Part shown: positions 1-64,000 of the stretch, piece after piece | How positions within the stretch are numbered: the stretch's first letter is position 1 | Layout of the letters: the number at the start of each line of letters is the position of its first letter | The notes under the pieces: model-generated | The model's database searches: none | What the model was told of the DNA's origin: nothing | Seen by the model: the letters and a program-made list of their open reading frames with translations, nothing else | Source of the DNA: a candidate division WOR-3 bacterium | Lineage (GTDB): Bacteria > Hydrothermota > Hydrothermia > LBFQ01 > DSFT01 | DNA length: 64,000 bases | Assembly: GCA_965649115.1 (NCBI GenBank) | Contig: CBFGJN010000001.1 | Location: 568-64,567 of the forward strand | Direction of reading: 5' to 3' | Translations under genes and position numbers: made by a program

Positions 1-276
1 GTTTCGCCCCCATTAAAACCTCCTAAAACAAAGATTTCTAATAAATTTTCGCAAGTTATTAACAATCAATTACAAAGCTTCGCTTTATAAATTCCCATAT
101 TTAGGCTATGGGTGTCAAAGCCCCCCCCAATAATTCATCACACAAAATCAATAACCTTAAATTAACACTAATAATAAGCCTACAACTTATAAACACCCCA
201 ACTTTTACCTTTGGAGGATTTTCCACCATTAACACTCAATAAAATCAAGTCTTCAAAATTCATTATTGGACAAAGC
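1..276 (+). repeat. MITE-like structured interspersed repeat copy, cut by the window edge. Variant subfamily with the CCTCCTAAAACAAAGATTTCTAATAAATTTTC interior.
   Basis: Ends with the family 3' terminus ATTATTGGACAAAGCA at 262-276. The interior shares TTCGGCTATGGG and CAAAGCCCCCCC boxes with other copies, for example 18484-18560. Confidence 0.6.
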
Positions 277-286
277 AATTATCAAT

Positions 287-448
287 TACTTGATGCTGTA
301 TTTAGTAATCCTAAAAGTATTTATTTTATTATGTTCTCCAATCAGTCCTGAATTTAAGCCTTCGGCTTACAAATCTTCGCTCCCCGTTAGAACCTCCTAA
401 AATCAATGGTTTCATTGACAATTGCTTAACATTATTTACTAAACAAAG
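287..448 (+). repeat. Degenerate copy of the same repeat family
   Basis: Contains the TATTTATTTTATTAT, AAGCCTTCGGCTT hairpin, AAAATCAATGGTTTCATTGA and AACAAAGCA boxes in family order. Confidence 0.55.
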
Positions 449-451
449 CAA

Positions 452-1036
452 TTACTTGACACCTTTATCTGAATAAAATTTTTTGGCAATTTCGTATTTC
501 CCTTCCTCTTTGTTTTTGTGTTTTATTTCCAAAATTAAATCATCACCAATAAATAAACTAAATTTGTACTGATCCTCAAATTTCTCAACTTTTATTTTTG
601 AGTTTGGATATTCTCTTTTTAATCTGCTAATGAAATCATCAAAATTACTTAACAAAAATTTTCTTTTTGACCAAAGAACATTTTCTAAAAATTCAAATAG
701 CTTATTAAAGCCATAATCAAAATAAATTCCACAACAATATGCTTCAAAAATTGTTGCCAATAAATAATCTGAAAATTTTATACTTCCAACATAAATTAAT
801 TCTTTATCCAAATTTAATTCTTTTGAAATATAACTTAAACTTCTTTTACTTGCTAATATCCCTCTTTCAATAGATGCATATTTTAAGTCATCAAAGTAAA
901 TTTGAAATAACTTTTGTCTTAAATACAAATCAATTAAGCTATCGCCAATAAATGCATATATTCTTTGAAACTTTCCACCTGCTGAACTATGTCTAAATAC
1001 TCTATCTCTTGTTTTAGAATTTAATTCAACCTTCAA
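452..1036 (-). CDS. rnc: Ribonuclease III-like protein (divergent)
   Basis: Has an AFIGDS motif resembling the RNase III signature LEFLGDS and an [12 protein letters not shown] block resembling ALEALIGAIYLD. The C-terminus is dsRBD-like, and the gene sits immediately downstream of fabF and acpP in the conserved acpP-fabF-rnc order. Some catalytic acidic residues appear substituted. Confidence 0.55.
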
Positions 1037-2273
1037 ATTTTTTGAAAATTAAACTAACATTATGACCACCAAAACCAAAAGAATTTTTAAGAGCGTATTT
1101 CACCTGTTTAGTTCTTTTTATATTTGGAACATAATCTAAATCACATTCAGGGTCAGGAACTTCATAATTTATTGTAGGATGAATAATTCCTGTTTCAATA
1201 GTTTTTATAACCGCTATACTCTCTACAACGCCAGCAGCACCAAGTAAATGACCAATCATAGATTTTGTAGAGCTTATTGGTATTTTATAAGCATATTCTT
1301 TAAATACACTTTTTATTGCAAGTGTTTCTGATTTGTCATTTAATTCAGTAGATGTTCCATGAGCATTAATATAATCAATTTGTGAAATATCAATTTGAGC
1401 ATCTTTTAAAGCATTTAACATACACTTAATAGCACCTTCTCCATCAGAACAAGGAGCTGTTATATGATAAGCATCAGCACTTTGACCATAACCTACAATT
1501 TCAGCATAAATTTTAGCACCTCTTTTTAAAGCATGTTCAAGCTCTTCAAGAACAATAATGCCTGCACCTTCTCCCATTACAAAACCATCTCTTAGCTTAT
1601 CAAATGGCCTTGAAGCTTTTTCTGGTTCATCATTTCTTGTTGATAATGCCCTAATTTGATTAAACCCTGAAATAGCAATAGGAATAATAGGAGCTTCTGC
1701 ACCTCCTGCCAATATAACATCAGCATCACCGTACTTTATTAATCTATAAGCTTCTCCAATAGCATGAGCAGAAGATGAACAAGCAGAAACAGTACAAAAG
1801 TTTGGACCCTTAAAACCAAACTTTATAGATACTAAACCACTTGCCATATCAGGTATCATCATAGGAACAAGATAAGGGCTAACTCTATCATAACCTTTAT
1901 CAAAGGCAACTTTAATTTCCCCAACTAATGTTTCAATCCCACCAATTCCACTCGCTATAATAACACCAACTCTATCAGGATTTACATTATATAATTTCGC
2001 ATCTTCAACAGCTTCAACCGAACAGTACAAAGCATATATGGAAAATCTATCAAGTTTATTTAATGGAACACCTGCTTCCTTCTTTTGTAATTTTTCAAAT
2101 GGATCAAAATCTTTTGGTAATAATCCTGCAATTTGCGTTTTTAGATTAGATACATCAAATCTATCTATTCTTCTAATACCACTTTTCCCTTCAATTAAAT
2201 TTTTCCAAAATTCATTTACATTTTTTCCAAGGGGCGTTAATGCCCCCATTCCCGTTATTACTACTCTCCTCAT
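1026..2273 (-). CDS. fabF: 3-oxoacyl-[acyl-carrier-protein] synthase II (KAS II)
   Basis: Full-length thiolase-fold condensing enzyme with active-site Cys in the CSSS context and HGTST and GHLLGAAG motifs. It is adjacent to acpP. Confidence 0.95.
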
Positions 2274-2554: not shown

Positions 2555-2572
2555 ATAGTTGATTAAAGATTT

Positions 2573-2777
2573 GCTGTGTCCAATAATTCTAAAACTATTT
2601 ATTTTATTATATTTTTCCCACCCACCCTATATTTAAGCCTTCGGCTTATAAATACCCATATTTCGGCTATGGGGGGCGAAGCCCCCCTAATAATCCCCCC
2701 GATAAATCAATAGTTTCATTAAAACTTTAATAAGTTATTGATATTCAAGGACTTAACAATAATTATTGGACAAAGCA
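2573..2777 (+). repeat. Full-length MITE-like repeat unit (205 bp) with terminal inverted repeats
   Basis: Starts GCTGTGTCCAATAATTCT and ends AATTATTGGACAAAGCA. It is flanked by perfect 10-bp direct repeats TTAAAGATTT at 2563-2572 and 2778-2787. The interior carries the CCCACCCACCC, AAGCCTTCGGCTT, GGGGGGCGAAGCCCCCC and TTGATATTCAAGG boxes. Confidence 0.8.
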
Positions 2778-2787
2778 TTAAAGATTT

Positions 2788-2935
2788 GCCTTGTCTAGTA
2801 ATTCTGAAAATATATTCATTTCTTTATTTTACCCACCCACCTATCCTGAAAATAAAGGTGGAGCCTTATAAATACCCAATTTTTTGCCTTTGGAGGGCAG
2901 AGTTCCCCTTAAATTCCCCCTGAAAATTTATGCTT
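2788..2935 (+). repeat. Degenerate tandem second copy of the repeat
   Basis: GCCTTGTCTAGTAATTCTGAAAA start, then CCCACCCACC and GGAGCCTTATAAATACCC boxes. The 3' end is missing. Confidence 0.6.
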
Positions 2936-2964
2936 TATAATTTTCAACTAACGGGAGGTGGAAC

Positions 2965-8152: not shown

Positions 8153-8162
8153 TGAATTAGAT

Positions 8163-8227
8163 GCTGTGCCCAAATAATTCTGAAAATCGGCACTTTTAAA
8201 ATACTCATTTTTTAATTATTTATCTTG
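8163..8227 (+). repeat. Fragment (5' end) of the repeat family
   Basis: GCTGTGCCCAAATAATTCTGAAAAT start box only. Confidence 0.5.
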
Positions 8228-11252: not shown

Positions 11253-11293
11253 TAGATTTTCTGTTTTAATTAAGCAAATAATCTGAGGCTTAT

Positions 11294-11372
11294 TGCTTTG
11301 TCCAATAAGAGGCATAAGAATGGTGATTTGTAAGCCGAAGGCTTGAATACAGGGTGAGTGGGAGAAATAAGA
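11294..11372 (-). repeat. Partial repeat copy in reverse orientation
   Basis: TGCTTTGTCCAATAAGA … AAGCCGAAGGCTT … AGGGTGAGTGGG, the reverse complements of the family boxes. Confidence 0.6.
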
Positions 11373-11433
11373 AATAATCTATTTGTCTAGTAAATTAAGG
11401 AAGGGTGAATGATTAAGCCTTTCTAAAAAATAA

Positions 11434-11612
11434 TGCTTTGTCCAGTAAATAATGTTAAGTAATTGACAATCAATAACTTATAAAAATCTACTTGAAACTA
11501 TTGATTTTATTGGGAGGAATTAAGGGGGCGAAGTTATAAGCGGAAGGCTTAATTTCAGTGGGGCTAGGAAAACAAAGAAAAATAAATACTTTCAGAATTT
11601 TCAGACACACCA
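11434..11612 (-). repeat. Repeat copy in reverse orientation
   Basis: TGCTTTGTCCAGTAAATAATG … TCAATAACTTATAAAA … GGGGGCGAAG … AAGCGGAAGGCTT … TTTCAGAATTTTCAGACACACCA. Confidence 0.7.
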
Positions 11613-11680
11613 GATAGTAAGGAAAGTTATGCTTTAAAATTTTCAAAGTTAGCTATGCTAACTAAAAAGGAGGTAAGGGT

Positions 11681-12109
11681 ATGAAGGTAAAAATGCTAAC
11701 AATAACAATAATCCTAGTAGGGGCAATATCTGCTGTAATGCTAATGGGACAATCTAAAACTAAACAGACTACTGACTTTACAGTATATATAAGAGCTTAT
11801 GATACGAATATACCAGAAGCTACGATAGAAGGTGTCCAAATAAAAAACGTAAGGCAATTCAATGTAATAAATGAACCATCTGACTTAGTTGTAAGAAAAG
11901 GAACCACTGTAAATGTAAGAATCATAAATGAATCTCCTATAAGTGAGAACTTTTCAATAGATGGTTATAATGATGTAAATTGGACACTGAAAGCAAAGGA
12001 AACCAAAGAATTTTCATTTGTTGCCAATAAAGTTGGTTCATATACTATATGGTGTAATCTACATCCTAAGAATATTCATCTTCCTGGAACATTTTCAGTA
12101 ATAGAATGA
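11681..12109 (+). CDS. Secreted cupredoxin-like (putative copper-binding) protein
   Basis: Signal peptide, then a C-terminal [10 protein letters not shown] block resembling a type-1 copper ligand set. Co-oriented and overlapping with the SCO1 gene. AAAGGAGGT RBS. Confidence 0.45.
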
Positions 12110-12642
12110 AAAAAATTATCATTTTTGGACTCCTTTTGGGGTCCTGCCAAAAAAATTTCAATGGAATGGTTTTGAAAGAACCAATTAAAGTAGAGCAAGA
12201 TTTCTTTTTGTTTGATTACAATGGAAATATAATTAATTTAAAAAACATTCTGAAAAGTTATAACTTAATTTTCTTCGGATATACAAGTTGTCCTGATGTA
12301 TGTTTTTTAGCTCTCAAAGATATTTCTGAAACTTTGAGATATGTCAAAAAGAAAGAAATAAATGTTATATTTATAAGTTTAGATTTAAAAAGGGATAAGC
12401 CTGAAATTGTAAAAAGTTATTTAAGCAAATTCAATAGTTCGTTTCTTGGATTTATTCCAAAGGATGAAAATGAATTGTATAAAATTTCAAAATTTTTCTC
12501 AGTTGCTTATGAAATAGATACTTTATCAGGTTATATTGGTCATAGTGCTTTTATTATATTCGTAAAAGGTAATAAAATTATTGAGTACTTTCCAATTGGG
12601 ATGAAACCTATTGATATAGCATCTGATATAAATAAATTCTAA
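12106..12642 (+). CDS. SCO1/SenC family copper chaperone (cytochrome oxidase CuA assembly)
   Basis: Thioredoxin-fold CxxxC motif [10 protein letters not shown]. Confidence 0.75.
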
Positions 12643-12694
12643 TAAGGATAAATCTTTATGAATTTTTAATGAAATTATTGAATTTGTAGGGGTT

Positions 12695-12880
12695 TGCCTT
12701 CCTATACCGAAAAAGTGTTAAGTTGTTGATTATTAATAATTTATAAATTTTTAAGAAAATCACTTATTTATTGGGGGGTTTTAAGGAGGACGAAGATTTT
12801 AAGCCATAGGCTAAGTTTTTATTTTTGTAAATCAAAACATTTGCCTCCATAAGTTATTGATAATCAGAAATTTATAAAAC
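12695..12880. repeat. Degenerate repeat-family remnant(s)
   Basis: GGGGGGTTTTAAGGAGGACGAAG, AAGCCATAGGCTAAG and TTATTGATAATCAG boxes. Confidence 0.45.
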
Positions 12881-12917
12881 TTGAAATGGTACCACATTAA
12901 ACTAAAAAATTTTCAGC

Positions 12918-14297
12918 ATGATTTTACTAACCTTTCATTTCATAAATGGTTATGGCGATAATGTAGATAACTACGCTTATTCTATAAGTATAACATCAGC
13001 TAATGAGATTATTGTTGTTGGTAAAGATGGTGGTGGTATGATAACGAAAATGGATTTAAATGGAAATATAAAATGGGCAAAGAGAGTAGGAGGACTATAT
13101 ACTATAAACGATATTGTAGAAACATTAGATGGTAAATATATTGTAGTTGGACAAACGGATGCAGGGAATATTTTTATATCTAAAATTGATACGAATGGAA
13201 TAGAAATTTGGAAAAAATCAATATATAATGGTGGGCTTGCTTCTGGTTATAAGATAGTAAAACTAGGAGATGGAAATTATTTAATTATTGATTATTTTAG
13301 GGGTATTGCAGTAATAGATGAGAGTGGAAATGTAATAAAAACTAGGAAAGAAAATACTTATTCCAATACGATATTTTACACTGGTTTGGCAAGAATTGAG
13401 GGTAGTTACTTAATAGCAGGCAATATCTCTTCACAAGGAATGGCTATTGTTCATACTGACTTTTCAATTGATTATTTTACAAAAGCAGATAATCCTAATG
13501 CTTCTATTTATCCTTACTTTATTTTTCAAGATGATGATAGTTCGTGCATTATTACTGGCTCTATTAACTCACAAGGCTTTATAATAAGACTTGATAAAAA
13601 TATAAATCCATTTCAATTAAAGTGGGCTAAAATTTATAATGGAACGAATAACATAAAATTTATTTCAAAAACTTCTGATGGAAATTATATTGCTATTGGA
13701 AACTATAAACCAAATAATGATTCTACTCAAATTGTCATATTTAAAACAGATACACTTGGAAATGTTATTTTCTCTAAAATTTTTAAGAGTCTTCATAATA
13801 AGTTCATCACATCAGCTATTTATAAAAATGGCTATGTCTATGTAATTTCAAATTTTAAGAATGTTAATAATAATGTCGATTTTTTGGTTATGAAAATAGA
13901 TGAGAACCTATCAGGAGATTGTAATTTCCAAAATCATAATTTAACATATAGTGATTTTCAGCTTAACAGGCAAGCTTTAACTCATTCTTACAATATATCA
14001 AATTCAATAAGTACTCCATCAACATCAATAAATGATTTGAATTATAATAGCTATAATTTTTGTACTACTCATAATCTTGAAAGTTGTCATTATAATATAT
14101 CAATCTCAATAAGTGGATACAATTTGAAAATTTATTCTCCATACAGAAATGAAATGTTTTATATTTACGATGTTTTAGGTAATCTTATAAAAAGAGGATA
14201 TTTAAAAGAAAATAATTTAATTAGTTTTAGTAAAGCGGGAATTTACATTTTAAAAGTTAAAGACAGAACTTATAAACTTTTCATAGGAAGGAGGTGA
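12918..14297 (+). CDS. SBBP beta-propeller-repeat protein with a T9SS C-terminal sorting domain
   Basis: Repeats of the DG(K/N)YI(V/A)(V/I)G type. C-terminus …AGIYILKVKDRTYKLFIGRR. N-terminus MILLTFHF, with no classical signal peptide. Confidence 0.7.
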   Translation: MILLTFHFINGYGDNVDNYAYSISITSANEIIVVGKDGGGMITKMDLNGNIKWAKRVGGLYTINDIVETLDGKYIVVGQTDAGNIFISKIDTNGIEIWKKSIYNGGLASGYKIVKLGDGNYLIIDYFRGIAVIDESGNVIKTRKENTYSNTIFYTGLARIEGSYLIAGNISSQGMAIVHTDFSIDYFTKADNPNASIYPYFIFQDDDSSCIITGSINSQGFIIRLDKNINPFQLKWAKIYNGTNNIKFISKTSDGNYIAIGNYKPNNDSTQIVIFKTDTLGNVIFSKIFKSLHNKFITSAIYKNGYVYVISNFKNVNNNVDFLVMKIDENLSGDCNFQNHNLTYSDFQLNRQALTHSYNISNSISTPSTSINDLNYNSYNFCTTHNLESCHYNISISISGYNLKIYSPYRNEMFYIYDVLGNLIKRGYLKENNLISFSKAGIYILKVKDRTYKLFIGRR

Positions 14298-14404
14298 GTT
14301 TATGTTAATGTTTATAATGAGCGAGATATTTCTTTGGAGAGGTGTAGCACAGGAACTAGAAAAAAGTTTCTATAAATTTAAAACTATAAAAAGGAGGTGA
14401 AAAT

Positions 14405-15520
14405 ATGATGCCCCTTATAATAACCACCATAACTCAAAACAACCCTGGAATGTGGGATGAATACATAAGAACCTACGAGAGGACAATAATAGAGAACAAA
14501 GGACAACTGAAAGACAGAGAAATAATCCTATACTCAAAAATAGACAAAAACCTAAACATATACCTAAAAGAGGACGGACTATACTTTGTAATATACTCAA
14601 ACGAAAAATATAACATAGTAAAGTACAATCTTATGTCATCAAGAATAAAAAAAGAGAACATAGTATATGAAGAAGAACTACCTGGATACAGAAATTACTA
14701 TTTATCAAATAGCCAAGGGGTGCTTTTTGTAAAGAGTTATAAGAAAGCCATAATAAAGGACATATATAACAACATAGATTGGGTATTAAAATTTGACGAA
14801 TATGGCAAATTTCATCACGAATTTATAGTAAAGAAAGGGGGGAGAGTTGAAGACATAAAGATAAGGATTGAAAATGGAAAAATCAGAATAGATGATAACA
14901 GAAAAAACATAATAATAACTACTGAACTTGGAGAGATAAAAGATGGAAACTTAATAGCATATCAAGAAGGCAAGGAAATTGAAGTAAAATTAAATTTGAG
15001 TAATAATAATGAAATAACTTATGAAGTTTCAAATTATGACAAGAACAAGGATTTAACAATTGACCCAAATACACTAATATGGTCTACTTACTTTGGAGGA
15101 AGTAGTGATGATTTTTCTTATTCCATTACAACAGATGCTAATGGTAATGTATATATAACGGGATACACTGCTTCAACAGACTTTCCATTAGCAAATCCAG
15201 GAGGAGGCGCTTATTTTGATAATACTCAAAATGGTTCTTACGATGCTTTCATTTCAAAATTTACTGGTTCAACTTCCATAAATGAAAAATATGAATATAC
15301 CTATATTAAAGATGGAATATATTTAAATCTACAAAAGACAGACAAGCCCATTAAAGTTATAATTTATAGCATAGATGGAAAGTTAATAAGAGAATATAAC
15401 TATTTAAAATCAGATGGGAAATTATTTATTAGAACCAAAGAATTAAAAAATGGCATTTATATTATAAAGGTTTATATTGATAGTAGAGAAGTTCTAAGTT
15501 TAAAAGCAATTAAAAATTAA
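14405..15520 (+). CDS. SBBP-repeat protein with an N-terminal DUF-type domain and a T9SS C-terminal domain
   Basis: Canonical SBBP block LIWSTYFGGSSDDFSYSITTDANGNVYITGYTASTDFP…YDAFISKF. C-terminus NGIYIIKVYIDSREVLSLKAIKN. AAGGAGGTG RBS. Confidence 0.75.
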   Translation: MMPLIITTITQNNPGMWDEYIRTYERTIIENKGQLKDREIILYSKIDKNLNIYLKEDGLYFVIYSNEKYNIVKYNLMSSRIKKENIVYEEELPGYRNYYLSNSQGVLFVKSYKKAIIKDIYNNIDWVLKFDEYGKFHHEFIVKKGGRVEDIKIRIENGKIRIDDNRKNIIITTELGEIKDGNLIAYQEGKEIEVKLNLSNNNEITYEVSNYDKNKDLTIDPNTLIWSTYFGGSSDDFSYSITTDANGNVYITGYTASTDFPLANPGGGAYFDNTQNGSYDAFISKFTGSTSINEKYEYTYIKDGIYLNLQKTDKPIKVIIYSIDGKLIREYNYLKSDGKLFIRTKELKNGIYIIKVYIDSREVLSLKAIKN

Positions 15521-15535
15521 AAAGGAGGTCAAGCT

Positions 15536-17002: not shown

Positions 17003-17004
17003 AA

Positions 17005-17020
17005 AGGGGCTCTTGCCCCT
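17005..17020. terminator. Bidirectional intrinsic terminator hairpin between convergent genes
   Basis: AGGGGCTCTTGCCCCT GC-rich hairpin flanked by T-run and A-run. Confidence 0.6.
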
Positions 17021-17023
17021 AAA

Positions 17024-18469: not shown

Positions 18470-18483
18470 AGTAAAATTTTAAA

Positions 18484-18737: not shown

Positions 18738-18757
18738 AAAACCATTTATTTTTTAGC

Positions 18758-24640: not shown

Positions 24641-24645
24641 TTACC

Positions 24646-46937: not shown

Positions 46938-47960
46938 ATGAAGTTAATTTTTCTTATTATCTTTTCTTTCCATTTATTTTCCTTAATCATTGCCATTTAT
47001 AAATTCTTCTCAATTAAAAAATTAAAAAGAAACTATCAAAATAACTTTAATAGAATCTCTATTTTAATTCCTGCGAGAAATGAAGAAAGAAACATAGAAA
47101 GAATTTTAAATTCTATTAAAAATTTAGATTATGAAAATTACGAAGTTTTAATTTATGATGATTTATCAGAAGATAGGACTTATGAAATTGCTAAAGGTTT
47201 TGAAAGTGAAAAAATAAGAGTTATAAAGGGATTTGATAAGCCAAAAGAATGGGTTGGTAAAAATTTTGCTCTTTATAATCTTGTAAAATTTTCAAGTGGA
47301 GAAATTTTATTATTTTTAGATGCAGATATTGAAATCAAAGATAAGGAGATTTTAAAAAAAATTTCAGAAAATATAAATGATGATGTTATTACAGGTTTTG
47401 GAAAATTTGAAGGATATGGAAAATTTATATTATCTATTGTTCCTTATTTATTTTCAATAATCCCAATAAATTTGGGTTTAAATGGTCAATTTTGGGCAAT
47501 TAAAAAAAACATTTATTTAAAATACAATCCTCATCTTTTATTTAAAAACGAAATTCTTGAAGATGTTAAAATTGGAAATTATCTAAAAATGAAGGGAATT
47601 AAGGTTAAGTTTTATGATTTGAAAGATGTGTTTGAAGTCAGAATGTACAATAATTTTAATGAATTACTTGAAGGTCTTACAAAAAATTCTTATAGAATGT
47701 TTGGAAAATTTTTAACACCAATTGCACTCATTTTTTATATTTTATTTTTCATATTACCATTTTTAAAATTTTGGAAAATTGGATTTATAGTTATCTTTGT
47801 AAAATTTATTTCGGATTTTAAGTTTGGCTTTTCAATTAAAGAAACAATTTTATCACCAATTGGTTTTATGATATTTGGAATAATTATTTTAAGGTCTTGG
47901 ATTTTTTCTATTTTAAATAGAATTTATTGGAAAGGTAGAAAATTGGAAACTAAATTGTGA
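46938..47960 (+). CDS. Glycosyltransferase family 2 (membrane-anchored)
   Basis: ISILIPARNEE, YDDLSEDRT and LDAD (DxD) motifs. C-terminal TM helices. Confidence 0.8.
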   Translation: MKLIFLIIFSFHLFSLIIAIYKFFSIKKLKRNYQNNFNRISILIPARNEERNIERILNSIKNLDYENYEVLIYDDLSEDRTYEIAKGFESEKIRVIKGFDKPKEWVGKNFALYNLVKFSSGEILLFLDADIEIKDKEILKKISENINDDVITGFGKFEGYGKFILSIVPYLFSIIPINLGLNGQFWAIKKNIYLKYNPHLLFKNEILEDVKIGNYLKMKGIKVKFYDLKDVFEVRMYNNFNELLEGLTKNSYRMFGKFLTPIALIFYILFFILPFLKFWKIGFIVIFVKFISDFKFGFSIKETILSPIGFMIFGIIILRSWIFSILNRIYWKGRKLETKL

Positions 47961-47984
47961 GTTAATGTTAAGTTTTTCATTATA

Positions 47985-48527
47985 AATAAGTTATTTTCGA
48001 GTGGGTGGGGAAAATAAAGTTGCTTTGTTCAATAAAAATTTTAAGAAAACTATTGATTTTAGCGGGTTTTTAAGGGGGGCAAAGCCCCCCATAACCGAAA
48101 TAGACACAGCAAATATATTTTGCTTTGTCCAGTAATTATTGTCAATCACTTGATAATCAATAACTTATAAAATTTTTAGGGAAATTATAGATTTCATTAG
48201 GGGGATTTTAGGGGGGCGAAGTCCCCCACAGCCTAAAAATGGGCATTTTAAAGCCGAAAGCTTTTATTTAGGGTGAGCGAGGAAAAATAGTAAAATAAAT
48301 AATTTTAGAATTATTAGACACAGCAAATATATTTAACTTTGTCTAGTAATTGGTGTTAAGTTATTGATAATCAATAATTTGTGAAAACTTAATAAAATTA
48401 TTGTCTTTATGGGGGTTTTAAGGGGGGCGAAGCCCCCCATAGCCGAAATATGGGTATTTTAAAGCCGAAGGCTTAATTTTAGGGTGGGTGGGAAAAATAA
48501 ATGGTTTTAGAATTACTAGACACAGCA
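47985..48527 (-). repeat. Array of three reverse-orientation repeat units plus a leading fragment, separated by a constant AATATATTT(T/A) spacer
   Basis: Units approximately 48011-48111, 48122-48325 and 48336-48527. Each starts (T)GCTTTGTYYARTAA and ends AGACACAGCA. The GGGGGGC(A/G)AAG(C/T)CCCCC hairpin is present in all. Confidence 0.8.
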
Positions 48528-48561
48528 AATATATTTATCAATTCTACTTTAAAATTTCATT

Positions 48562-48747
48562 ATGAAAAAAATTTTAATAATTATAATTTTTTTACTTTCT
48601 TGTGAGAAAGAAGCTGATATTATAATAGAAAAAAATGGCTCTGTAATTATAAAAAGTAAAAGAATTAAATGCGAAAAAGAAAAATTCCTTTTTTGGGAAA
48701 CAGGTAGATTGAAATGTTATATTGTAGAGGAAAAAGGGAGAAAATAA
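48562..48747 (+). CDS. Small hypothetical lipoprotein
   Basis: Lipobox FLLSCEK. The promoter palindrome CTTTAAAATTTCATT abuts the ATG. Confidence 0.4.
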   Translation: MKKILIIIIFLLSCEKEADIIIEKNGSVIIKSKRIKCEKEKFLFWETGRLKCYIVEEKGRK

Positions 48748-51992: not shown

Positions 51993-52054
51993 AGTATGAA
52001 ATTTTAAACGAGGTAAAAGATGAAAAATTATTTTAATGAGACTTTTGATTTCAT

Positions 52055-52180
52055 GGGGGGATTGAAGGGGGTGGTAGCCCCCTACTGCTGAAAAATGTGT
52101 ATTTTAAAGGTTCCACCTTGGTGGATGGGTAAAATAAAGAAATAATCTATATTTTAGAATTACTAGACAAAGAAAATAAT
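52055..52180 (-). repeat. Degenerate repeat copy in reverse orientation
   Basis: GGGGGGATTGAAGGGGGTGGTAGCCCCC … GGTGGATGGG … TTTAGAATTACTAGACAAAG. Confidence 0.55.
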
Positions 52181-56226: not shown

Positions 56227-57138
56227 ATGATAATTGTTCATGGTGGTGCAGGTGAATGGAATGAAGAAAAATTTAAAATTGCTGAAAAAATTTTAATTAA
56301 AGCAGTAGAAGAAGCATTAGAAATTTTAAGAAAAGATGATGACCCTATAACTGCTTGTGAAACAGCTATTAAAATTCTTGAAGATGAACCTATCTTTAAT
56401 GCAGGAACGGGAAGTGTTTTGAATATATTTGGTGAGGTTGAAATGGATGCAAGCATTATGCGTGGAGATAATTTAAAAGCAGGGGCTGTTGCAGGTATTA
56501 AAAATATTAAAAATCCAATCAGTTTAGCAAGGAAAATTATGGAAGAAACTGAACATGTTTTAATAATTTCAGAAGGCGCTCAAAAACTTGCTAAAACCTT
56601 TGGATTTGAAGAATATAATCCTATTACAGATGAAAGTATTGAAAAGTACAAAAAGGCAAAAGAAAATTTTGATAAAATTAATAGTTTGAAACATATTAAA
56701 GAATTTATGGAAAAATATCCAAATTATTTCATTGGAACTGTTGGAGCAGTTGTTGTAAATAGTAAGGGAGTTATTGTAAGTGGTTCTTCAACAGGTGGGA
56801 CAATTTTAAAATTAAAGGGTAGAGTTGGAGATACACCCTTAATTGGTGCAGGAATATATGCTAATGATGTTTGTGGAGCAAGTGCAACAGGAATAGGAGA
56901 GGGCATAATTAGAGTAAATTTAAGTTCATTTGTTTGTTATTTAGTTAAATTTGGAGTTTCAGTTGAAAATGCTACAAAAAGTGCTATTGATTATTTAACT
57001 CAAAAAGTAAATTTGCCAGCAGGTATTATTGCTGTTGATAAATATGGAAATGTAGGATTTTATCATAATACAAAATATATGCCTGTTGCCTACTATAAAG
57101 ATGGTGAAATTCAAACAAAATTTAGTTGTTTTGTCTAG
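56227..57138 (+). CDS. Isoaspartyl peptidase / L-asparaginase (Ntn-hydrolase)
   Basis: Autoproteolytic GTVGAVVVN site (Thr nucleophile) and GAGI/GGT blocks. Confidence 0.85.
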   Translation: MIIVHGGAGEWNEEKFKIAEKILIKAVEEALEILRKDDDPITACETAIKILEDEPIFNAGTGSVLNIFGEVEMDASIMRGDNLKAGAVAGIKNIKNPISLARKIMEETEHVLIISEGAQKLAKTFGFEEYNPITDESIEKYKKAKENFDKINSLKHIKEFMEKYPNYFIGTVGAVVVNSKGVIVSGSSTGGTILKLKGRVGDTPLIGAGIYANDVCGASATGIGEGIIRVNLSSFVCYLVKFGVSVENATKSAIDYLTQKVNLPAGIIAVDKYGNVGFYHNTKYMPVAYYKDGEIQTKFSCFV

Positions 57139-57250
57139 TAATTCCAATTTCGGTTATGGGGGGCAAAGCCCTCTTAACCCCCGATAAATCAACTATTTTA
57201 AGGACTTAACAATAATTACTGAACAAATAGTTCGGCTGTGGGGCTGAGCA
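57139..57250 (+). repeat. Partial repeat copy (3' portion)
   Basis: TTCGGTTATGGGGGGCAAAGCCC … CCCCCGATAAATCAAC … AAGGACTTAACAATAATTACTGAACAAA. Confidence 0.6.
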
Positions 57251-57262: not shown

Positions 57263-58660
57263 TTATATTTTTTCTTCTTCAAGATTAATAAATTTTAAAT
57301 TTTTAGATTTTATTTCTTTTAATATACTTCCAAGTGATTTTAGTGTGTTTTTTCTTTCGTGAAATAGAATTATTGAACCTCCTCTTAATTGGTTAATTAC
57401 TTTAAAATAAATTCCATTTGGACTTAAAAGTTTCCAATCTTCTGAATCATCGTTCCATAAAACTACTTTCATATTTAAGTCTCTTATTACTGAATCCATA
57501 GTGTAGGAATATCTTCCATAAGGTGGTCTAAAAAGGAAGGGTTTAAAACCTGTTAATTTCTCTATTAATTTATTTGTAGTATCAATCTCTTTTCTTATCG
57601 TTTTATAATCTTTAAAAATTAAAACAGGTGAGTGTGAATATGAATGATTTCCAATTATGTGTCCCCTCTTATAAATTTCTAAAACTTCATTTGGATATTT
57701 TTCTATATTCTTTCCAACTAGAAAGAAAACAGCTTTTATTTGGTATTTATCTAAGGTATCAAGTATTTGTTTTGTCCATGGACTTGGTCCATCATCAAAT
57801 GTTATTAAAACTTCGTCTTTGCTATTTAATTGATATATAATATATGGCTTTTTAAGTAATTTTTTGTTTAGTTGAGCATGGACTTCAAAGTACGAAAATG
57901 TAATTAGTATAATAGCAAAAACTACAAATGCTAAAATGTTTCTTCTTTTTATCTCTCTAATTGGTGGTAAGTTCTTCATAATAGGTTTTTTAAAAACATT
58001 TAAAAAGATGTAATTTAGTAAAATATATACAAATAAAGATTTAAAAAGACCCATTTTAAATCTCCTACTTGATGTAATAACAGGATTGTTAATGGTTTTT
58101 ACTTTGCCTATTTTCTTTAAACGATTGCCAAGGTCAATATCTTCGCCTGTTATAAAATTTAAATTAAATCCACCCACTTTCAAAAATGCTGATTTTTTAA
58201 CTGCAAAATTACAACCTGCAAAACTATTATTTCCTTTTATCATTCTTTCAATTTTTAAGACAATTGGTGTAAAAATTTTAAAAATTAATGATGTAAAATT
58301 AAAGACCTCTTTAAATTTTACTTCTCCATTTAAAGCAATTATATTTTCATCTTTTTTAAATTCCTCAACATATTTACTTATCCAATTTCTTGGAACAATA
58401 GTGTCAGCATCTGTTGATAAAATAATATCCCCACTTGCATTTAAAAATCCTGTTTGTCTTGCAAAGGCAGTTCCTTTTCTATTTTCAACAATTACTTTAA
58501 CAGGATAATTTTTTAAAATTTCTAATGTTCTATCAGTAGAACCATTATCAACAACAATAATTTCATATTCTTCTTCATAATCTTGATTTAGCAAAGATTC
58601 TATACAATTTTTTATATATTTTTCTTCATTATAAACAGGAATAACGATAGAAACTTTCAT
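57263..58660 (-). CDS. Bifunctional GT2 glycosyltransferase / polysaccharide deacetylase (PgaC-PgaB-like fusion)
   Basis: N-terminal VSIVIPVYNEE…DADT GT2 motifs, central TM helices, and a C-terminal NodB domain (ITFDDGP, GNHSYSH). The start at 58660 (MKVSIVIP) is preferred over the longer ORF that runs into the repeat. Confidence 0.75.
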   Translation of the reverse strand: MKVSIVIPVYNEEKYIKNCIESLLNQDYEEEYEIIVVDNGSTDRTLEILKNYPVKVIVENRKGTAFARQTGFLNASGDIILSTDADTIVPRNWISKYVEEFKKDENIIALNGEVKFKEVFNFTSLIFKIFTPIVLKIERMIKGNNSFAGCNFAVKKSAFLKVGGFNLNFITGEDIDLGNRLKKIGKVKTINNPVITSSRRFKMGLFKSLFVYILLNYIFLNVFKKPIMKNLPPIREIKRRNILAFVVFAIILITFSYFEVHAQLNKKLLKKPYIIYQLNSKDEVLITFDDGPSPWTKQILDTLDKYQIKAVFFLVGKNIEKYPNEVLEIYKRGHIIGNHSYSHSPVLIFKDYKTIRKEIDTTNKLIEKLTGFKPFLFRPPYGRYSYTMDSVIRDLNMKVVLWNDDSEDWKLLSPNGIYFKVINQLRGGSIILFHERKNTLKSLGSILKEIKSKNLKFINLEEEKI

Positions 58661-58699
58661 AATATATAAAATTTTAAAGTTTAATGTTGATTTTTTTGT

Positions 58700-58903
58700 G
58701 CCTTGTCCAATAATTCTGGAAATATAATTATTTCTATATTTTCCCACCCGCCCTAAAAATAAGCCTTCGGCTTTAAAAAACCCCATCTTTTGCTATGGGG
58801 GGCTCTGCCCCCCATAAAGTGCCCCCATTATTTCAAGTATTTCAATTAATACTTAATAAGTAGTTGATTATCAATCACTTAGCAATAATTATTGGACAAA
58901 GCA
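58700..58903 (+). repeat. Full-length repeat unit
   Basis: GCCTTGTCCAATAATTCTGG … CCCACCCGCCC … AAGCCTTCGGCTT … GGGGGGCTCTGCCCCCC … TTGATTATCAATCA … AATTATTGGACAAAGCA. Preceded by ATTTTTTTGT. Confidence 0.8.
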
Positions 58904-58913
58904 AGAGTTAGTT

Positions 58914-59116
58914 GCTGTGTCTAAGAATTCTGAAAGTATTTATTTTTCTTATTTTGCCCACCCGCCCTGAAATAAAGGCTACGCCTTTAAAATGCCCATT
59001 TTTCGGCTGTGGGGGGCTCCGCCCCCCATTAGATCCCCCATAAAATCAATAGTTTTATTGAAATTTTCGTAAGTCATTGATAATCAAGGATTTAACAATA
59101 ATTATTGGACAAAGCA
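58914..59116 (+). repeat. Full-length repeat unit (tandem to the previous one)
   Basis: GCTGTGTCTAAGAATTCTGAAA … CCCACCCGCCC … AAAGGCTACGCCTTT (stem-swapped hairpin) … GGGGGGCTCCGCCCCCC … AATTATTGGACAAAGCA. Followed by ATTTTTTTGT. Confidence 0.8.
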
Positions 59117-59126
59117 ATTTTTTTGT

Positions 59127-59200
59127 GCTGTGTCCAGTAATTCTGAAATATAAAATAATTCTTTTTCCCCCGAAAAATCAAGAGTTTTAATTAACAATAT
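59127..59200 (+). repeat. 5' fragment of a third tandem repeat unit
   Basis: GCTGTGTCCAGTAATTCTGAAATATAAAATAATTC. Confidence 0.6.
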
Positions 59201-59207: not shown

Positions 59208-59225
59208 GCTTTAAAATTTTCAAAC
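59208..59225 (+). promoter_or_regulatory. Promoter-like palindrome GCTTTAAAATTTTCAAAC immediately upstream of the riboswitch
   Basis: The riboswitch P1 stem begins 1-2 nt after the motif. Confidence 0.55.
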
Positions 59226-59226
59226 A

Positions 59227-59366
59227 TGCAGGCGACAGGGAAGAGGGGTGAAATTCCCCCGCTGTCCCAGCAGCCGTGATGGGCATAAAAATTGCCCCTG
59301 AAAGCCACTGCCGAAAGGTGGGAAGGCTCAGGGGTTTTTAGCCCTAAGCCGGAAGACCTGCCTGCA
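59227..59366 (+). promoter_or_regulatory. Cobalamin (AdoCbl) riboswitch
   Basis: P1 TGCAGGC…GCCTGCA. Conserved AGGGAAGAGGGGTGAAATTCCCC, GCCACTG and GGGAAGGC elements. B12 box AAGCCGGAAGACCTGCC. A downstream hairpin CCCTTCCTG…CAGGAAGGGG can sequester the GGAGG RBS. Confidence 0.85.
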
Positions 59367-60841
59367 TGCTTCAAAACCCTTCCTGCTGGGGTTCAGGAAG
59401 GGGGGAGGTTGTAAGCTTGCTTGATACTATAATTGTTATAGATACTTTTAGATTTTTTTATAAAATTGATAGTTTAAGTAAATTTTCAGATTTTAGGGAA
59501 GTTTTTAGACAGAATAGTTCTATTATTTTTAGAGAACTTTCTAATAGGATTGTAGTTTCAATAAGAGGACTTGAAGATAAGCAAAATGAAGTTTATTTAA
59601 ATGGTGTAAAATTGAATAATCCAATTTGGGGATTTTTTTATGCTAATGCTTTACCTTTAAATTTAATAAGTTCTTCAAACGTTATTCTGAATAATTATAG
59701 AGTAAATTTTGAAATTTCAGGGGAGAAAGAAATTGGATTTTTTATTGGCTCATATAATAAATTTTCAATGTACTATAAAAATGGAACTTTTGGAATTGAA
59801 AGAACATATAATGAAAATAATTACAGATATTGGGATAGTTTTAATAGGGAATATCAAAGAAAAAATAATTTTGAAGATAAAATTGGAGGATTTTTAAATT
59901 TTAAGAATTTAAGCATCATTTTTTATGATGGAATTTTTGGAATGCCATTAAGAGGATATGGTAATGAAGGAAGCGATTTTGAAATTTATAAAGGTTTAAT
60001 TTTAAGTTATAAAAATCATTATTTTAATTATCAATTCTATCGCTATAATTATGAAAAACCCTATGAAAGCTATATATTGGATCTCAATTATTTCCAAGTA
60101 GTTTTTTCAAATATGGAAGAATTTCACAAAAGATTTATTTTCAAAATGCCTTTCAAATATCTTGGTTATTTTTCAATAGTTTTAGATGAAAACAATTTCA
60201 AATTTGACTATTTAATTTCAAAAGCTTTTAGGTATCATAATTTTATTTTTGAATTAGCACTAAAAAGAAGAATTCCAAATTTTTCTGAATTATATTATAA
60301 AAGTAATTATGCAATTGGAAATCAAAGCTTAACCCCTGAAAATTTTTACACATTACAAATGAAATATAAACTTTTTGACATTTTTATAACTTATATTCAA
60401 AATCCTATTTTATGGCTACCTGATGAAAATTATTGGAAAGCTCAAAACTTAAATTATTTATTTTTATATGGTTTTGAAATGGATTATAATTATAGATTTT
60501 TAGAGTTTTCAGTTTCTTATATCAAAAATAAGCTTTCAAATAACATGATATTGCCATATAGACCAAATTTAACAATTTCAGCCTCTATAAATTACAATTT
60601 TAGCTCTTTCTTGAAAGATAAATTAGTTTTTATATATTATTCAAAAAGACCAAGCTATTATTATCCTTCAAGTTTTTATTTAGAACCAATTTTAATAATA
60701 GATTATTATAAATTCTTTGAGTTTAAAAAGTTTTTCTTCTACATTTACTTTAAAAATCTTTTAAATAAATCTTATGAGTTTATAAAAGGCTATCCTATGG
60801 AAAGCTTTTCTTTAAACATAAAAGGAGGTTTAAAGTGGTAG
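59366..60841 (+). CDS. TonB-dependent outer-membrane receptor, BtuB-like (start uncertain; no recognisable signal peptide)
   Basis: The TonB-box-like DTIIVIDTFRF aligns with BtuB DTLVVTANRF. Plug motif VSIRGLEDKQNEVYLNGVKLNN. C-terminal aromatic (…GGLKW). A candidate TTG start at 59417 lies 8 nt after GGAGG. Confidence 0.6.
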   Translation: MLQNPSCWGSGRGEVVSLLDTIIVIDTFRFFYKIDSLSKFSDFREVFRQNSSIIFRELSNRIVVSIRGLEDKQNEVYLNGVKLNNPIWGFFYANALPLNLISSSNVILNNYRVNFEISGEKEIGFFIGSYNKFSMYYKNGTFGIERTYNENNYRYWDSFNREYQRKNNFEDKIGGFLNFKNLSIIFYDGIFGMPLRGYGNEGSDFEIYKGLILSYKNHYFNYQFYRYNYEKPYESYILDLNYFQVVFSNMEEFHKRFIFKMPFKYLGYFSIVLDENNFKFDYLISKAFRYHNFIFELALKRRIPNFSELYYKSNYAIGNQSLTPENFYTLQMKYKLFDIFITYIQNPILWLPDENYWKAQNLNYLFLYGFEMDYNYRFLEFSVSYIKNKLSNNMILPYRPNLTISASINYNFSSFLKDKLVFIYYSKRPSYYYPSSFYLEPILIIDYYKFFEFKKFFFYIYFKNLLNKSYEFIKGYPMESFSLNIKGGLKW

Positions 60842-61920: not shown

Positions 61921-63074
61921 TAAACCTTATAGTTAGCTATGGAGCGTTTGTTATTGGTCAAAGTACAAAACAAGTTTATATTATATATCAAAATCAGATT
62001 GTTGATAGCTTTCCAACTGGAACAAGAGCTGTTCCAAATTATCTAATATCTTTTGGTGATACTTTTCTTATTGTGAATTCTGGTGGATTTTCAGATAATG
62101 GCTCAATTGCTTTTATAAAGAATAAAAACATCATATATGAACTTTTACTTCCAAGCTTTATGAATCCTATGGAAGCTGTTAAGGTAAACAACAAAATATA
62201 TTTTACTGATTTTGGAGATACTTTTAATGATAAAATTTACATTATTCAAAATTACCAAATTATTGATTCAATAAAGGTTTATAAAAGACCAAGTTCAATA
62301 GCTTATTGTTTTGGCTATATCTTTTCTACTTCAACGGGGATAAATAGTGATTATAGTTATGACGATTCGTCATTTGTTCATAAAATAAATCCTTCAAACA
62401 ATAGTGTTTTGAACTTAAAGCTTCGCTCAAATGCTAATGGTGTAAAATGTGATAATAATTATGTTTATGTAATGACAAGTGGAACTTATGATAATAATTT
62501 CAATCCTTTAAACAATTCAACAATTTATAAAATAAATCCACTGACATTTCAAATTATTGATTCTACAAAAAATTTAGAAAATGTTTCAAGTTTTGCTGTT
62601 GGTAATAATTATATTCTTGTTGGTGTTTGGAAATTTGATAGTGTAAAAGTTTATAAAATAAATAAAAATAATTTTAGTTTAATTGATAGTTTCAAATTAA
62701 ATTATGGTGGCCTTGGAGGGATTGATTTTGATGGTCAATTTTTTAAATTTTCACTTGGTGGATTTACAGGTGGTCCAAATGTAATTTATGTTTTAAAAGA
62801 AAGTGATAATACTTCATATTATTTTATTCATCATAATAGTGATGTTGGAAGTGGATTTATTAAAGGATTTATTAGTTTATCTAATTACGAGGTCGTTAAA
62901 AATAAAGTTGGAAACGGAATTATTCATTTCTCAAAAATTCAAGAAATCTATGTTTATGATATTTCAGGAAGAAAAATCCTTCATTTAAGAGATAATAAGT
63001 TAAATTTAAGAAGTTTAAATAATGGCGTTTATATTATTAAAACTGATGAAGGATATTTGAAAATTTTAAAATAA
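61917..63074 (+). CDS. Beta-propeller-like surface protein with a T9SS C-terminal domain (possible BtuG-like B12-binding protein)
   Basis: Overlapping ATGA start. Repeated (Y/F)x(T/V)D-type blade motifs (IYFTDFGD, YVYVMTSG). C-terminus NGVYIIKTDEGYLKILK. Confidence 0.4.
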   Translation: MINLIVSYGAFVIGQSTKQVYIIYQNQIVDSFPTGTRAVPNYLISFGDTFLIVNSGGFSDNGSIAFIKNKNIIYELLLPSFMNPMEAVKVNNKIYFTDFGDTFNDKIYIIQNYQIIDSIKVYKRPSSIAYCFGYIFSTSTGINSDYSYDDSSFVHKINPSNNSVLNLKLRSNANGVKCDNNYVYVMTSGTYDNNFNPLNNSTIYKINPLTFQIIDSTKNLENVSSFAVGNNYILVGVWKFDSVKVYKINKNNFSLIDSFKLNYGGLGGIDFDGQFFKFSLGGFTGGPNVIYVLKESDNTSYYFIHHNSDVGSGFIKGFISLSNYEVVKNKVGNGIIHFSKIQEIYVYDISGRKILHLRDNKLNLRSLNNGVYIIKTDEGYLKILK

Positions 63075-63089
63075 ATTGAGATAAACTTT

Positions 63090-63372
63090 ATTGGGGGTAG
63101 GGTTTTAAGGGAGTCCCCCCATAGCCTAAAAATGGACATTTAAAAGATGGATTTTTTAAAGCTGTGGGCTTAATTTTTAGGATAGGTAGGCAAAATATAG
63201 AAATACAATAACTTATAAATTTTTAAGGAAATTGTTAATTTATTGGGGGAAATTAAGGGGGGCGAAGCCCCCCACTGCCGAAAAATGGGTATTTTTAAGC
63301 CGAAGGCTTAATTATAGGGTGGGTGGGCAAAATATAGAAATGAATATATTTTTAGAATTATTGGACACAGCA
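63090..63372 (-). repeat. Two reverse-orientation repeat units
   Basis: GGGAGTCCCCCCATAGCCTAAAAATGG … and GGGGGGCGAAGCCCCCCACTGCCGAAAAATGGGTATTTTTAAGCCGAAGGCTTAATTATAGGGTGGGTGGGC … TTTTTAGAATTATTGGACACAGCA. Confidence 0.75.
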
Positions 63373-63407
63373 TTTGAACCTTTCTTATGCCCTTTAAAAT
63401 TTAAATT

Positions 63408-64000
63408 ATGCTATTTTTAAATTTTCAATTTACATGGAGTGGTTATTCAGATATTCATATAGCTGATGAGCAGATAAAAAGTGTGAAAGAAATTGGAAAT
63501 GGTTTTCTCATAACAGGATATTTCTATAATGATGATGGTTATGCTGATGTTATTATTATGAAAATTGATAAATTAGGTAATGTCGTTTGGGCTAAGTACT
63601 TTGGTGATTTTTATGTAGATGATGTTGGTTATGATATTTTAATTTTAAATGATGGTTTTTTGATTTTTGGGACAACAAATCAGGGTTCAATTGATGGCTA
63701 TAATGATTTATTTCTTGCAAAATTTACAAATAATGGAGATTTAATTTGGGCAAAAATTTATAAATATCCAGGTCAGGTTTATGCTAATGAAATTATAAGA
63801 GATAGTAATAGTTACATTCTTGTTTCAAAAATAGCTCCTGGAAATGTTTCACTTCATCCATTTGTTATAAATGTGGATACTAATGGAAATATAATATGGG
63901 CTAAATTTTATGGTTATCCTTCTGATATTCAGGAATATAGTCCTGCTTATTATTTTGATAGAATAGCACTAAAAATAAATGATGGTTTCTTTATATTAGG
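63408..64000 (+). CDS. SBBP beta-propeller-repeat protein (5' part; continues beyond the window)
   Basis: ATG at 63408 directly after CCTTTAAAATTTAAATT. N-terminus MLFLNFQFTW is paralogous to the other SBBP genes. Repeats DGYADVIIMKIDKLGNVVWAKYFG and DLFLAKFTNNGDLIWAK. Confidence 0.6.
   Translation, partial: MLFLNFQFTWSGYSDIHIADEQIKSVKEIGNGFLITGYFYNDDGYADVIIMKIDKLGNVVWAKYFGDFYVDDVGYDILILNDGFLIFGTTNQGSIDGYNDLFLAKFTNNGDLIWAKIYKYPGQVYANEIIRDSNSYILVSKIAPGNVSLHPFVINVDTNGNIIWAKFYGYPSDIQEYSPAYYFDRIALKINDGFFIL

Follow-up and report, generated by a model that had tools for sequence, protein, structure and literature searches.

The window analysed here is a 64,000-nucleotide stretch of a candidate division WOR-3 genome (GenBank assembly GCA_965649115.1, contig CBFGJN010000001.1, positions 568 to 64,567 of the forward strand), with a G+C content of ~27% and a set of housekeeping genes that includes those for FabF, acyl carrier protein (ACP), SerRS, TruB, glycine dehydrogenase, a MurC-like ligase, an A/V-type ATPase and cytochrome oxidase, among others. 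Lying between these genes is a family of short repeats, which an initial annotation of the sequence had described as miniature inverted-repeat transposable elements (MITEs), and whose placement relative to a promoter-like host motif is the subject of this report. Contig JBDRXU010000048.1, from the metagenome-assembled genome (MAG) GCA_039803085.1, is 99.99% identical to the first 10.6 kb of the window, and the species-representative genomes with the nearest SerRS sequences are MAGs that carry the labels Candidatus Hydrothermia (93%) and candidate division WOR-3 (86% and 82%). Ca. Hydrothermia is placed by NCBI in the class Caldifarciminia.

Extent of the repeat family

Searching the window with an nhmmer profile of the family, we found ~27 full or partial MITE copies in 14 intergenic regions; the iterated profile returned 37 matches, which merge into 3409 bp or 5.33% of the window. 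The repeats occupy 3360 of the 6418 non-genic bases (52%), and copies of both orientations are present. The 12-mer TGTCCAATAATT, with up to two mismatches allowed, occurs 51 times, compared to 23.8 ± 4.3 times in shuffled sequences. A blastn search with the seed copy at 2571-2777 retrieved the loci named in the initial annotation, and all of the intervals given there contain family sequence, but the one at 8163-8227 is merely a short degenerate remnant. Of the 15 intergenic gaps of more than 120 bp, 14 hold MITE copies; the occupancy of most intergenic regions, noted in the initial annotation, is not random filling but follows a placement rule beside host promoter-like motifs, described below.

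The copies contain no open reading frame (ORF) of 80 or more amino acids, Pfam scans of 30 window proteins returned no transposase, and tblastn of the partner transposase introduced below against the whole window gave no match; no transposase is encoded in the window, and the elements are non-autonomous, as had been proposed. We assembled a pool of copies from the window, one relative and 120 metagenome loci fetched by a pattern of the terminal inverted repeats (TIRs), ~85 of which contain the family. This pool yields 107 unique full copies, and 64 full copies were aligned for a consensus. The repeats can be called hyper-abundant in the window (5.3%) and across these ~85 metagenome loci, but any genome-wide copy number is an extrapolation.

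Structure of the element

The full unit is ~205 bp long and is bounded by 17-bp TIRs, TGCTKTGTCYAATAATT and AATWATTRGACAAAGCA, which pair in 94% of the cells of the 64-copy alignment. From left to right, the element consists of a TIR, an AT-rich stretch, CCCACCCACCC, a AAGCCTTCGGCTT hairpin, a GGGGGGC-TTC-GCCCCCC hairpin, the palindrome TTGATWATCAA and the second TIR, and the order of parts proposed earlier agrees with this consensus. Among the 107 unique full copies, 38 are flanked by a perfect 9-bp target-site duplication (TSD, 9/9), seven by a duplication matching at 8/9 and four at 7/9 positions, compared to a maximum of 6/9 in a shifted control; the 9-bp direct repeats seen in the window are ATTACTTGA, TTAAAGATT and AAATATATT. 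Two variants of the TIR, GTCCAATAA and GTCTAGTAA, match two lineages of the insertion sequence (IS) described below, and these variants co-vary between the two ends of MITE copies, with numerous hybrids.

Hairpin 1, AAGCC-TTC-GGCTT, shows exchanges of CG to GC and of CG to UA, with pair 70-76 being CG in 44 copies and GC in nine, and hairpin 2, GGGGGGC-TTC-GCCCCCC, is conserved. RNAalifold applied to the 64 copies recovered the TIR helix and hairpin 1 only, because alignment shifts in the G-run hid hairpin 2, and the hairpins were accordingly scored on a structure specified by hand. One copy folds better than its own shuffles, with z = -3.3 for one strand and -2.1 for the other. Both strands of the copies contain terminator-like sites, in which a hairpin is followed by a T-run, and one of the two is the strand read toward the promoter-like motif. 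Hairpin 1 has its T-run on the strand that is read towards the left end, hairpin 2 on the opposite one. A scan of Rfam at the gathering score gave no repeat-associated match, and a permissive Rfam scan of 47950-48720 gave matches at chance level only (E at least 0.23).

Several further features were seen in the copies. At model positions ~146-161, for example at 24705(-), 63227(-) and 12755(-), every copy carries a near-consensus form of the promoter-like host motif, TCCTAAAATTTTCATA, directed out of the right end, with the conserved palindrome TTGATWATCAA just downstream of it; outward promoters have been reported for IS903-group elements (PMC3281130). On the strand opposite CCCACCCACCC and further C-runs, at model positions ~46-57 and 100-135 (2616-2627 in the window, for example), stand GGGTGGGTGGG and more G-runs, which could possibly form a G-quadruplex. 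In a few copies the loop of the GGGGGGC hairpin reads, inverted, CGAAG in place of CTTCG, as though the palindrome had been flipped. Truncated copies in the pool are more often 5'-complete and 3'-truncated (66) than 3'-complete and 5'-truncated (29), and their end points gather just after hairpin 1 (model 73-81) and near 133-150.

Placement upstream of a promoter-like motif

The left flanks of the copies share a motif at a fixed distance. In 139 unique left flanks outside arrays, positions -30 to -20 read AAATTTTAAAG, with the consensus base found in 89-118 copies at each of positions -30 to -21 and in 66 copies at -20; the nine TSD positions of these flanks carry no information, and the right flanks show no motif. 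Read on the other strand, AAATTTTAAAG is the promoter-like motif CTTTAAAATTT. About 80% of the outer left ends lie 18-19 bp upstream of CTTTAAAATTT in constant orientation, and the spacing forms a single-nucleotide peak, with 61 ends at one offset and no more than 16 at each of the others. This 18-19-nt placement is kept by solo insertions flanked by a perfect TSD, and in the window ten promoter-like motifs have a MITE end 18-19 nt upstream, which is always the left end.

All 20 exact copies of CTTTAAAATTT in the window stand directly upstream of genes, two tRNAs or a cobalamin riboswitch, and the distance from the start of the motif to the start codon is 15-22 nt, or longer with GGAGG in between. 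Examples are found at 8151(-), 11250(-), 18757(+), 21522(+), 23689(-), 31578(-), 40393(-), 40453(+), 53116(+) and 59209(+). An extended form, CTTTAAAATTT(T)CAAA, was seen 15-22 nt before most start codons and also before both tRNAs and the riboswitch. The motif is a feature of the host, since it is also found before start codons in L123 and L124, relatives that lack MITEs, and at insertion sites that are empty. Most simply, it would be a promoter element of the -10 type; our flank analysis found no conserved -35 element upstream of it. From the distances to start codons and tRNAs, we infer that transcripts start ~15 nt after the first base of the motif, which would put the last base of the MITE near -35, and the same distances suggest that many genes may be leaderless.

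Two other ideas on the motif were considered and rejected. A hybrid promoter, with a -35 box supplied by the TTGGACA of the TIR, would have a spacing of ~28 nt to the -10-like box, which is too long. The target motif and the subterminal region of the IS both have TTAA at 22-25 from the tip, a resemblance too weak to serve as evidence.

Arrays of copies

Many copies occur in arrays, within which the spacing is again precise. Of 45 neighbouring pairs with complete facing ends, 44 run head-to-tail and 35 have a gap of exactly 9 bp. The spacers mostly equal the flanking duplication, giving X-X-other or X-X-X patterns where X is one 9-mer, and the copy at the far end of an array is often 3'-truncated. 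In 17 of 27 arrays the outermost copy is in register with the motif, and most of the other arrays lie near one. Neighbours in an array resemble each other no more than random pairs do (74% versus 76% identity, p = 0.44), indicating that the arrays arose by repeated independent insertions and not by local duplication.

Copies in the window

Most copies in the window can be placed individually relative to the motif. Downstream of the RNase III gene, 1-450 (+) holds a cluster of four or five MITE pieces recognised by nhmmer and TSD, namely 3-73, 74-157, 165-277 with a complete right end, and 294-450, which has both ends, an internal deletion and the TSD ATTACTTGA. The full-length MITE at 2572-2777 (+), with TSD TTAAAGATT, has its left end 18 nt from the motif at 2553 (-) of the ACP gene and is followed after 9 bp by a 5'-complete, 3'-truncated copy (model 1-144) at 2787-2936 (+), which abuts the motif at 2933 (+). 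The degenerate remnant at 8161-8227 (+), comprising the left TIR and an internal fragment (local nhmmer E=0.0019), lies 10 nt from the motif at 8151 (-). By nhmmer, an internal fragment (model 30-96) is present at 11311-11377 (-), close to a both-ended copy of 179 bp with an internal deletion at 11434-11612 (-), whose left end is 19 nt from the motif at 11632 (+), and fragments (model 59-191 and others) are present at 12707-12887 (-).

Further along, a left-end fragment (model 2-37) at 18484-18519 (+) is fused directly to the motif at 18484 (-), and the left part of a copy (model 1-78) at 18658-18737 (-) has its left end 19 nt from the SerRS motif at 18757 (+). The both-ended copy at 24646-24828 (-), with its left end 19 nt from the motif at 24848 (+) of GcvP2, is orthologous to L122 9732-9897 at 83% identity and is accompanied by a fragment of a second copy at 24569-24645 (+), part of the nhmmer match at 24569-24700 (model 69-191). 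An internally deleted copy at 27895-28032 (+) stands with its left end 19 nt from the motif at 27875 (-) and shares its right part with the 3' end of ORF 27987-28556; another deleted copy (model 1-168), at 29682-29782 (+), has its left end 18 nt from the motif at 29663 (-). The 5'-complete copy (model 1-158) at 38201-38354 (+) is an exception to the 19-nt rule, being 46 nt from the motif at 38154 (-).

Two full copies (48121-48325 and 48335-48527) form a head-to-tail array at 48121-48527 (-), with the outer left end 19 nt from the motif at 48547 (+) and with AAATATATT before, between and after the copies; a fragment (model 87-204) detected by nhmmer at 48022-48102 (-) lies at the distal end of the array. 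A 5'-complete copy (model 3-156) at 52027-52175 (-) has its left end 19 nt from the FecCD motif at 52194 (+), and an internally deleted copy with both TIRs at 57130-57227 (+) lies between convergent genes. A further array at 58699-59170 (+) comprises two full copies and a truncated one (58699-58903, 58913-59116 and 59126-59170), with its left end 19 nt from the motif at 58679 (-) and with spacers ATTTTTTTG, AGAGTTAGT and ATTTTTTTG, and is located upstream of the cobalamin riboswitch. Lastly, two pieces (model 30-136 and 1-168) at 63084-63372 (-) have their left end 19 nt from the motif at 63392 (+).

The partner insertion sequence

An autonomous element with matching TIRs, whose existence the initial annotation had left to be checked, is present in the metagenome loci L175, L286 and L287 and as a fragment in L001. 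This IS is 1039-1055 bp long, has TIRs as in the MITE and contains a single transposase ORF of 295-300 aa. The copy at L175 8623-9662, which is 1040 bp long with a 295-aa ORF and MITE-type TIRs, was reached via TIR-like sites outside MITE matches, and a search for homologues (95% and 73% identity) uncovered two long contigs on which full IS copies with MITE-type TIRs and perfect 9-bp duplications are surrounded by MITEs. The other full copies, all with MITE-type TIRs, are L286 9933-10987 (TSD GTAAGGCAA), L287 6605-7643 and L287 9944-10982 (TSD AAGCTTTAT). Like the MITEs, the IS is found in register with the host motif: five of seven IS right ends have the same motif spacing, and the other two abut a MITE.

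The ORF matches the NCBIfam model NF033579 (IS5 family), its best NCBIfam match, over its full length with 227.6 bits against a cut-off of 140, as well as Pfam PF13737 and PF01609; for comparison, the IS903 transposase, taken as a reference from a Klebsiella plasmid record, scores 353 bits against NF033579. Members of the IS903 group are 1050-1054 bp long and make 9-bp duplications (PMC3281130), and the new element shares with them a length of ~1050 bp, one DDE transposase and a 9-bp duplication. Its inverted repeats, of ~18 bp, resemble those of IS903 in part: the left repeat TGCTTTGTCTAGTAAATC has 14 of 18 identities with the IS903 repeat GGCTTTGTTGAATAAATC, but the tip is TGC, not GGC. The transposase is only 29% identical to that of IS903 (BLASTP, E=2e-32). 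The TSD length and the partner transposase, and more tentatively the ends, place the MITE family in the IS5 family, IS903 group.

An IS-end fragment, L001 11099-11218, ends a contig of the window's own genome and lies 440-560 bp beyond window position 1. Contigs were also seen to end inside the IS at L176 10535-10720 and L275 11706-11803, and, since three contigs end in it, the IS appears to break assemblies, which suggests that the multi-copy element fragments assemblies of the lineage. Beside nested IS903-like copies, L287 5296-6023 holds a fragment of an IS1-family element (InsA zinc ribbon, DDE_Tnp_IS1).

Distribution and mobility

The range of the family is narrow. Its profile gave five matches in 9.9 kb of the relative whose SerRS is 93% identical and none in 18.7 and 21.3 kb (40 kb) of the relatives with 86% and 82% identity. 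These two stretches, L123 and L124, contain no other repeat family either, which shows that GC-rich hairpin repeats are not general to the clade. Scanning viral contigs with the TIR pattern gave single chance matches only, and a paper on the WOR-3 isolate strain sy37 makes no mention of repeats or transposons.

Comparing genomes that are 85-91% identical (L122, L177, L195, L217, L227 and L286) with the window, we observed filled and empty orthologous sites. The site at 57130-57227 is filled in the window and empty in L227. Conversely, the COX2 promoter site is empty in the window and carries a three-copy array in L177 and one copy in L217, the site at 31560-31648 is empty in the window and filled in L286 and L195, and the promoter site at 21522 is empty in the window and filled in L122. 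Random pairs of copies are just 76% identical, indicating that the family is old, and the existence of perfect duplications indicates that it is still active. The TIRs, the 9-bp TSDs, the many copies, the lack of transposase coding in the window, the site polymorphism and the matching autonomous IS together bear out the reading of the repeats as MITEs.

A proposed insertion mechanism and its alternatives

We consider it likely that the repeats and their partner form one MITE/IS903-like family with orientation-specific insertion upstream of the promoter-like motif and with array-building reuse of the target. In the proposed mechanism, an IS5-family, IS903-group DDE transposase would act in trans on the ~205-bp MITEs. 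Both IS and MITE would insert in one orientation, with the MITE left end, which corresponds to the right inverted repeat of the IS, 19 bp and sometimes 18 bp upstream of CTTTAAAATTT, and the duplicated 9-mer, for which there would be no sequence preference, would fall at -19 to -11 relative to the motif. The motif-proximal copy of the 9-mer would keep the right distance and could be struck again by later insertions, resulting in head-to-tail arrays with identical 9-bp spacers, in which the newest copy sits by the promoter and older, decayed copies have been pushed away. Such reuse of the proximal 9-mer would account for the constant orientation, the identical spacers, the dissimilar neighbours and the decay at the distal end.

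The placement itself could come about through targeting, in which the transposase or a protein sitting on the motif picks the site, or through selection after near-random intergenic insertion, with position and orientation fixed because promoters that need no -35 region tolerate an element beside them. The genome is compact, with MITE-free intergenic gaps mostly shorter than 110 bp and hence few neutral sites, the region upstream of the motif, lacking a conserved -35 element, is plausibly dispensable, and exceptions to the placement rule exist, all of which would suit selection. Nevertheless, selection should leave a lower bound with a tail in place of the single-nucleotide peak (61 against at most 16), and it does not readily explain why orientation is essentially invariant, why one 9-mer was struck two or three times independently to give X-X-X arrays of unrelated copies, why the youngest copies, those with perfect TSDs, are already in place, or why the autonomous IS is placed likewise. 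Selection as the cause of the placement seems improbable to us, although it could contribute; that the peak is one nucleotide wide, that the orientation does not vary and that one 9-mer is used again and again argue for targeting.

The arrays in particular might instead reflect local tandem duplication, or a preference of new copies for the ends of copies already in place, a behaviour known from some IS families. Attraction to resident ends was our first reading of the arrays, and it draws on the finding that ~30 of the 38 copies with perfect TSDs have the left end of another copy right after the TSD, as well as on spacers of exactly 9 bp. We dropped it since solo insertions without neighbours and IS copies keep the same motif distance, since the outermost copy of most arrays is in register with a motif or near one, and since promoter-directed reuse of a 9-mer covers orientation, spacer identity and the polarity of decay with no extra assumption; tandem duplication is ruled out as the source by neighbours that have diverged as much as random pairs. 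Taken together, this pair of explanations has very little probability left. Least credible of all, in our estimate, is the idea that recombination spread the repeats and that they are, in the main, genes for structured RNAs or RNA modules regulating in cis (terminators or attenuators). The two conserved hairpins, rich in GC within a genome of such low G+C content, the compensatory changes in hairpin 1, the folding z-scores and the terminator-like sites all speak for function as RNA, yet the TIRs, the 9-bp TSDs, the filled and empty sites and an IS with identical ends are marks of transposition, and Rfam holds no match. A secondary role at the RNA level may be part of the targeted-insertion account, in which the GC-rich hairpins would act as terminators or insulators before the promoter.

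Several points weigh against the targeted-insertion account. About 20% of the outer left ends depart from the 19-nt rule, with spacings of 8-12 and 23 nt among them, and the exceptions in the window include the copies starting at 38201, 57130 and 12707 and the cluster at 1-450. Most metagenome loci were gathered by the TIR pattern, so that the counts are not fully independent, and, despite dereplication by flanks, some loci may be one locus from related populations. The covariation in the hairpins is modest and the copies are related by descent; it is by its position that the motif is read as a promoter; and the transposase has, compared to that of IS903, no extra domain that is an obvious candidate for reading the motif. 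In a genome so dense in genes, selection against insertions at other places could, moreover, sharpen an initially looser distribution. We lean, by a narrow step beyond an even chance, towards a natural safe-harbour system in which the IS5-family transposase, alone or with a promoter-bound host protein, reads an 11-bp promoter element and integrates one helical turn away, with the orientation fixed and the 9-mer free, and in which the MITE derivative sets hairpin/terminator cassettes before ~40% of the promoters in the window.

Neighbouring genes and variable segments

Some MITE copies lie at the ends of segments that vary between related genomes. A 7.5-kb segment of the window, 11255-18752, is missing in L122 between the genes for an M48 peptidase and SerRS; it encodes a cupredoxin, SCO1, a DUF7948/Por-tail protein and three unannotated ORFs and has MITE copies at both ends. 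Window 26901-29800 and L286 15053-16110 are variable cassettes between conserved genes, in which MITEs part the modules: the window carries an alcohol dehydrogenase gene and a two-gene AbiL/PDC-M38-like candidate defence pair, consisting of a DUF3226 protein and an AAA_15 ATPase (AbiLi E=2e-19), and L286 carries two Uma2-family genes.

The asparaginase gene takes its final three codons and TAG stop, at 57130-57138, from the left inverted repeat of a MITE; its product ends in KFSCFV* in the window, compared to KFSYFS* at the empty site of L227. The mechanically called ORF 57263-58786 (-) extends into a MITE, and the comparison with L227 together with the position of the motif indicates that its true start is the ATG at 58662. 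The cobalamin riboswitch at 59213-59379 (+), detected with 85.8 bits upstream of a TonB-receptor-like gene (Plug domain), directly follows the three-copy MITE array; L227 has another gene after the orthologous MITE, placing the array before the riboswitch at a synteny break.

Discussion

The initial annotation did not recognise the family as REP/BIME, and it is indeed not of that kind. REPs are palindromes of 20-40 nt that have neither TIRs nor TSDs and are tied to Y1 (RAYT) transposases. The new family resembles them in being abundant, intergenic and hairpin-forming, with regular clusters, but its 205-bp units have TIRs, 9-bp TSDs and a DDE partner and are no bare palindromes. Closer in kind are Correia/CREE, RUP, ERIC and the IS5-related MITE of Porphyromonas gingivalis, which are short, non-coding, intergenic elements with TIRs and a TSD and many copies; such bacterial MITEs often carry hairpins, promoters or terminators and are moved in trans by related ISs. 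The new family is likewise short, non-coding, intergenic and multi-copy, has TIRs and a TSD and would be mobilised in trans. Correia, RUP, ERIC, RPE and HIP1 are marked by consensus sequences specific to each family and by a TA duplication or none, and their termini and TSDs would differ from TGCTKTGTCC with 9 bp. Unlike Correia, RUP, ERIC and the P. gingivalis MITE, to which it is unrelated in sequence, the new family reaches a density of 5.3% of the window, or half of its non-genic DNA, is inserted with a site and orientation specific to a promoter-like motif and forms head-to-tail arrays spaced by TSDs; for those families, the literature searched offered no account of such features. The new family matches no Rfam family and is not an orphan, given its place beside IS903.

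With regard to target choice, IS903 itself, according to PMC2577343, uses a weak palindrome directly flanking the duplication, WTTYA-N9-TRAAW. The new IS has, instead, a one-sided 11-bp motif 10 bp from the duplication, which would fix the orientation, and its host is an uncultured thermophilic lineage, not a proteobacterium. By analogy, it can be set beside elements that integrate at a set distance from a recognised site or near transcription start regions, namely Tn7 at attTn7, Ty3 and Ty1 of yeast and Tf1 of fission yeast, in which a recognised feature at a distance likewise determines the position and orientation of insertion and so spares genes. These use dedicated target selectors or are tethered to transcription factors of the host; their element classes are unrelated to that of a small, single-ORF element of the IS5 family. 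In the open-access literature, we found neither bacterial MITE arrays with spacers of TSD length nor an IS at a fixed distance from a promoter element. The family is new to the libraries searched; MITEs as a kind are known, and its unusual feature would be the targeting rule.

Since MITEs are common, a new MITE family alone would be a modest result. Here, a small DDE IS apparently picks its target via a sequence outside the duplicated site that sets the orientation, a mode of selection that normally belongs to larger systems with dedicated target selectors. If this is true targeting, the transposase would be a simple candidate for integration directed by a motif, and it could serve as a model of how target capture geometry evolves within the IS903 group. 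The element has remodelled the region upstream of a large share of promoters in the streamlined genome of a barely studied phylum, and it marks the borders of variable gene cassettes. The analysis also exposes the promoter motif of this lineage and suggests that leaderless transcripts are widespread, both of which would be useful for genome annotation.

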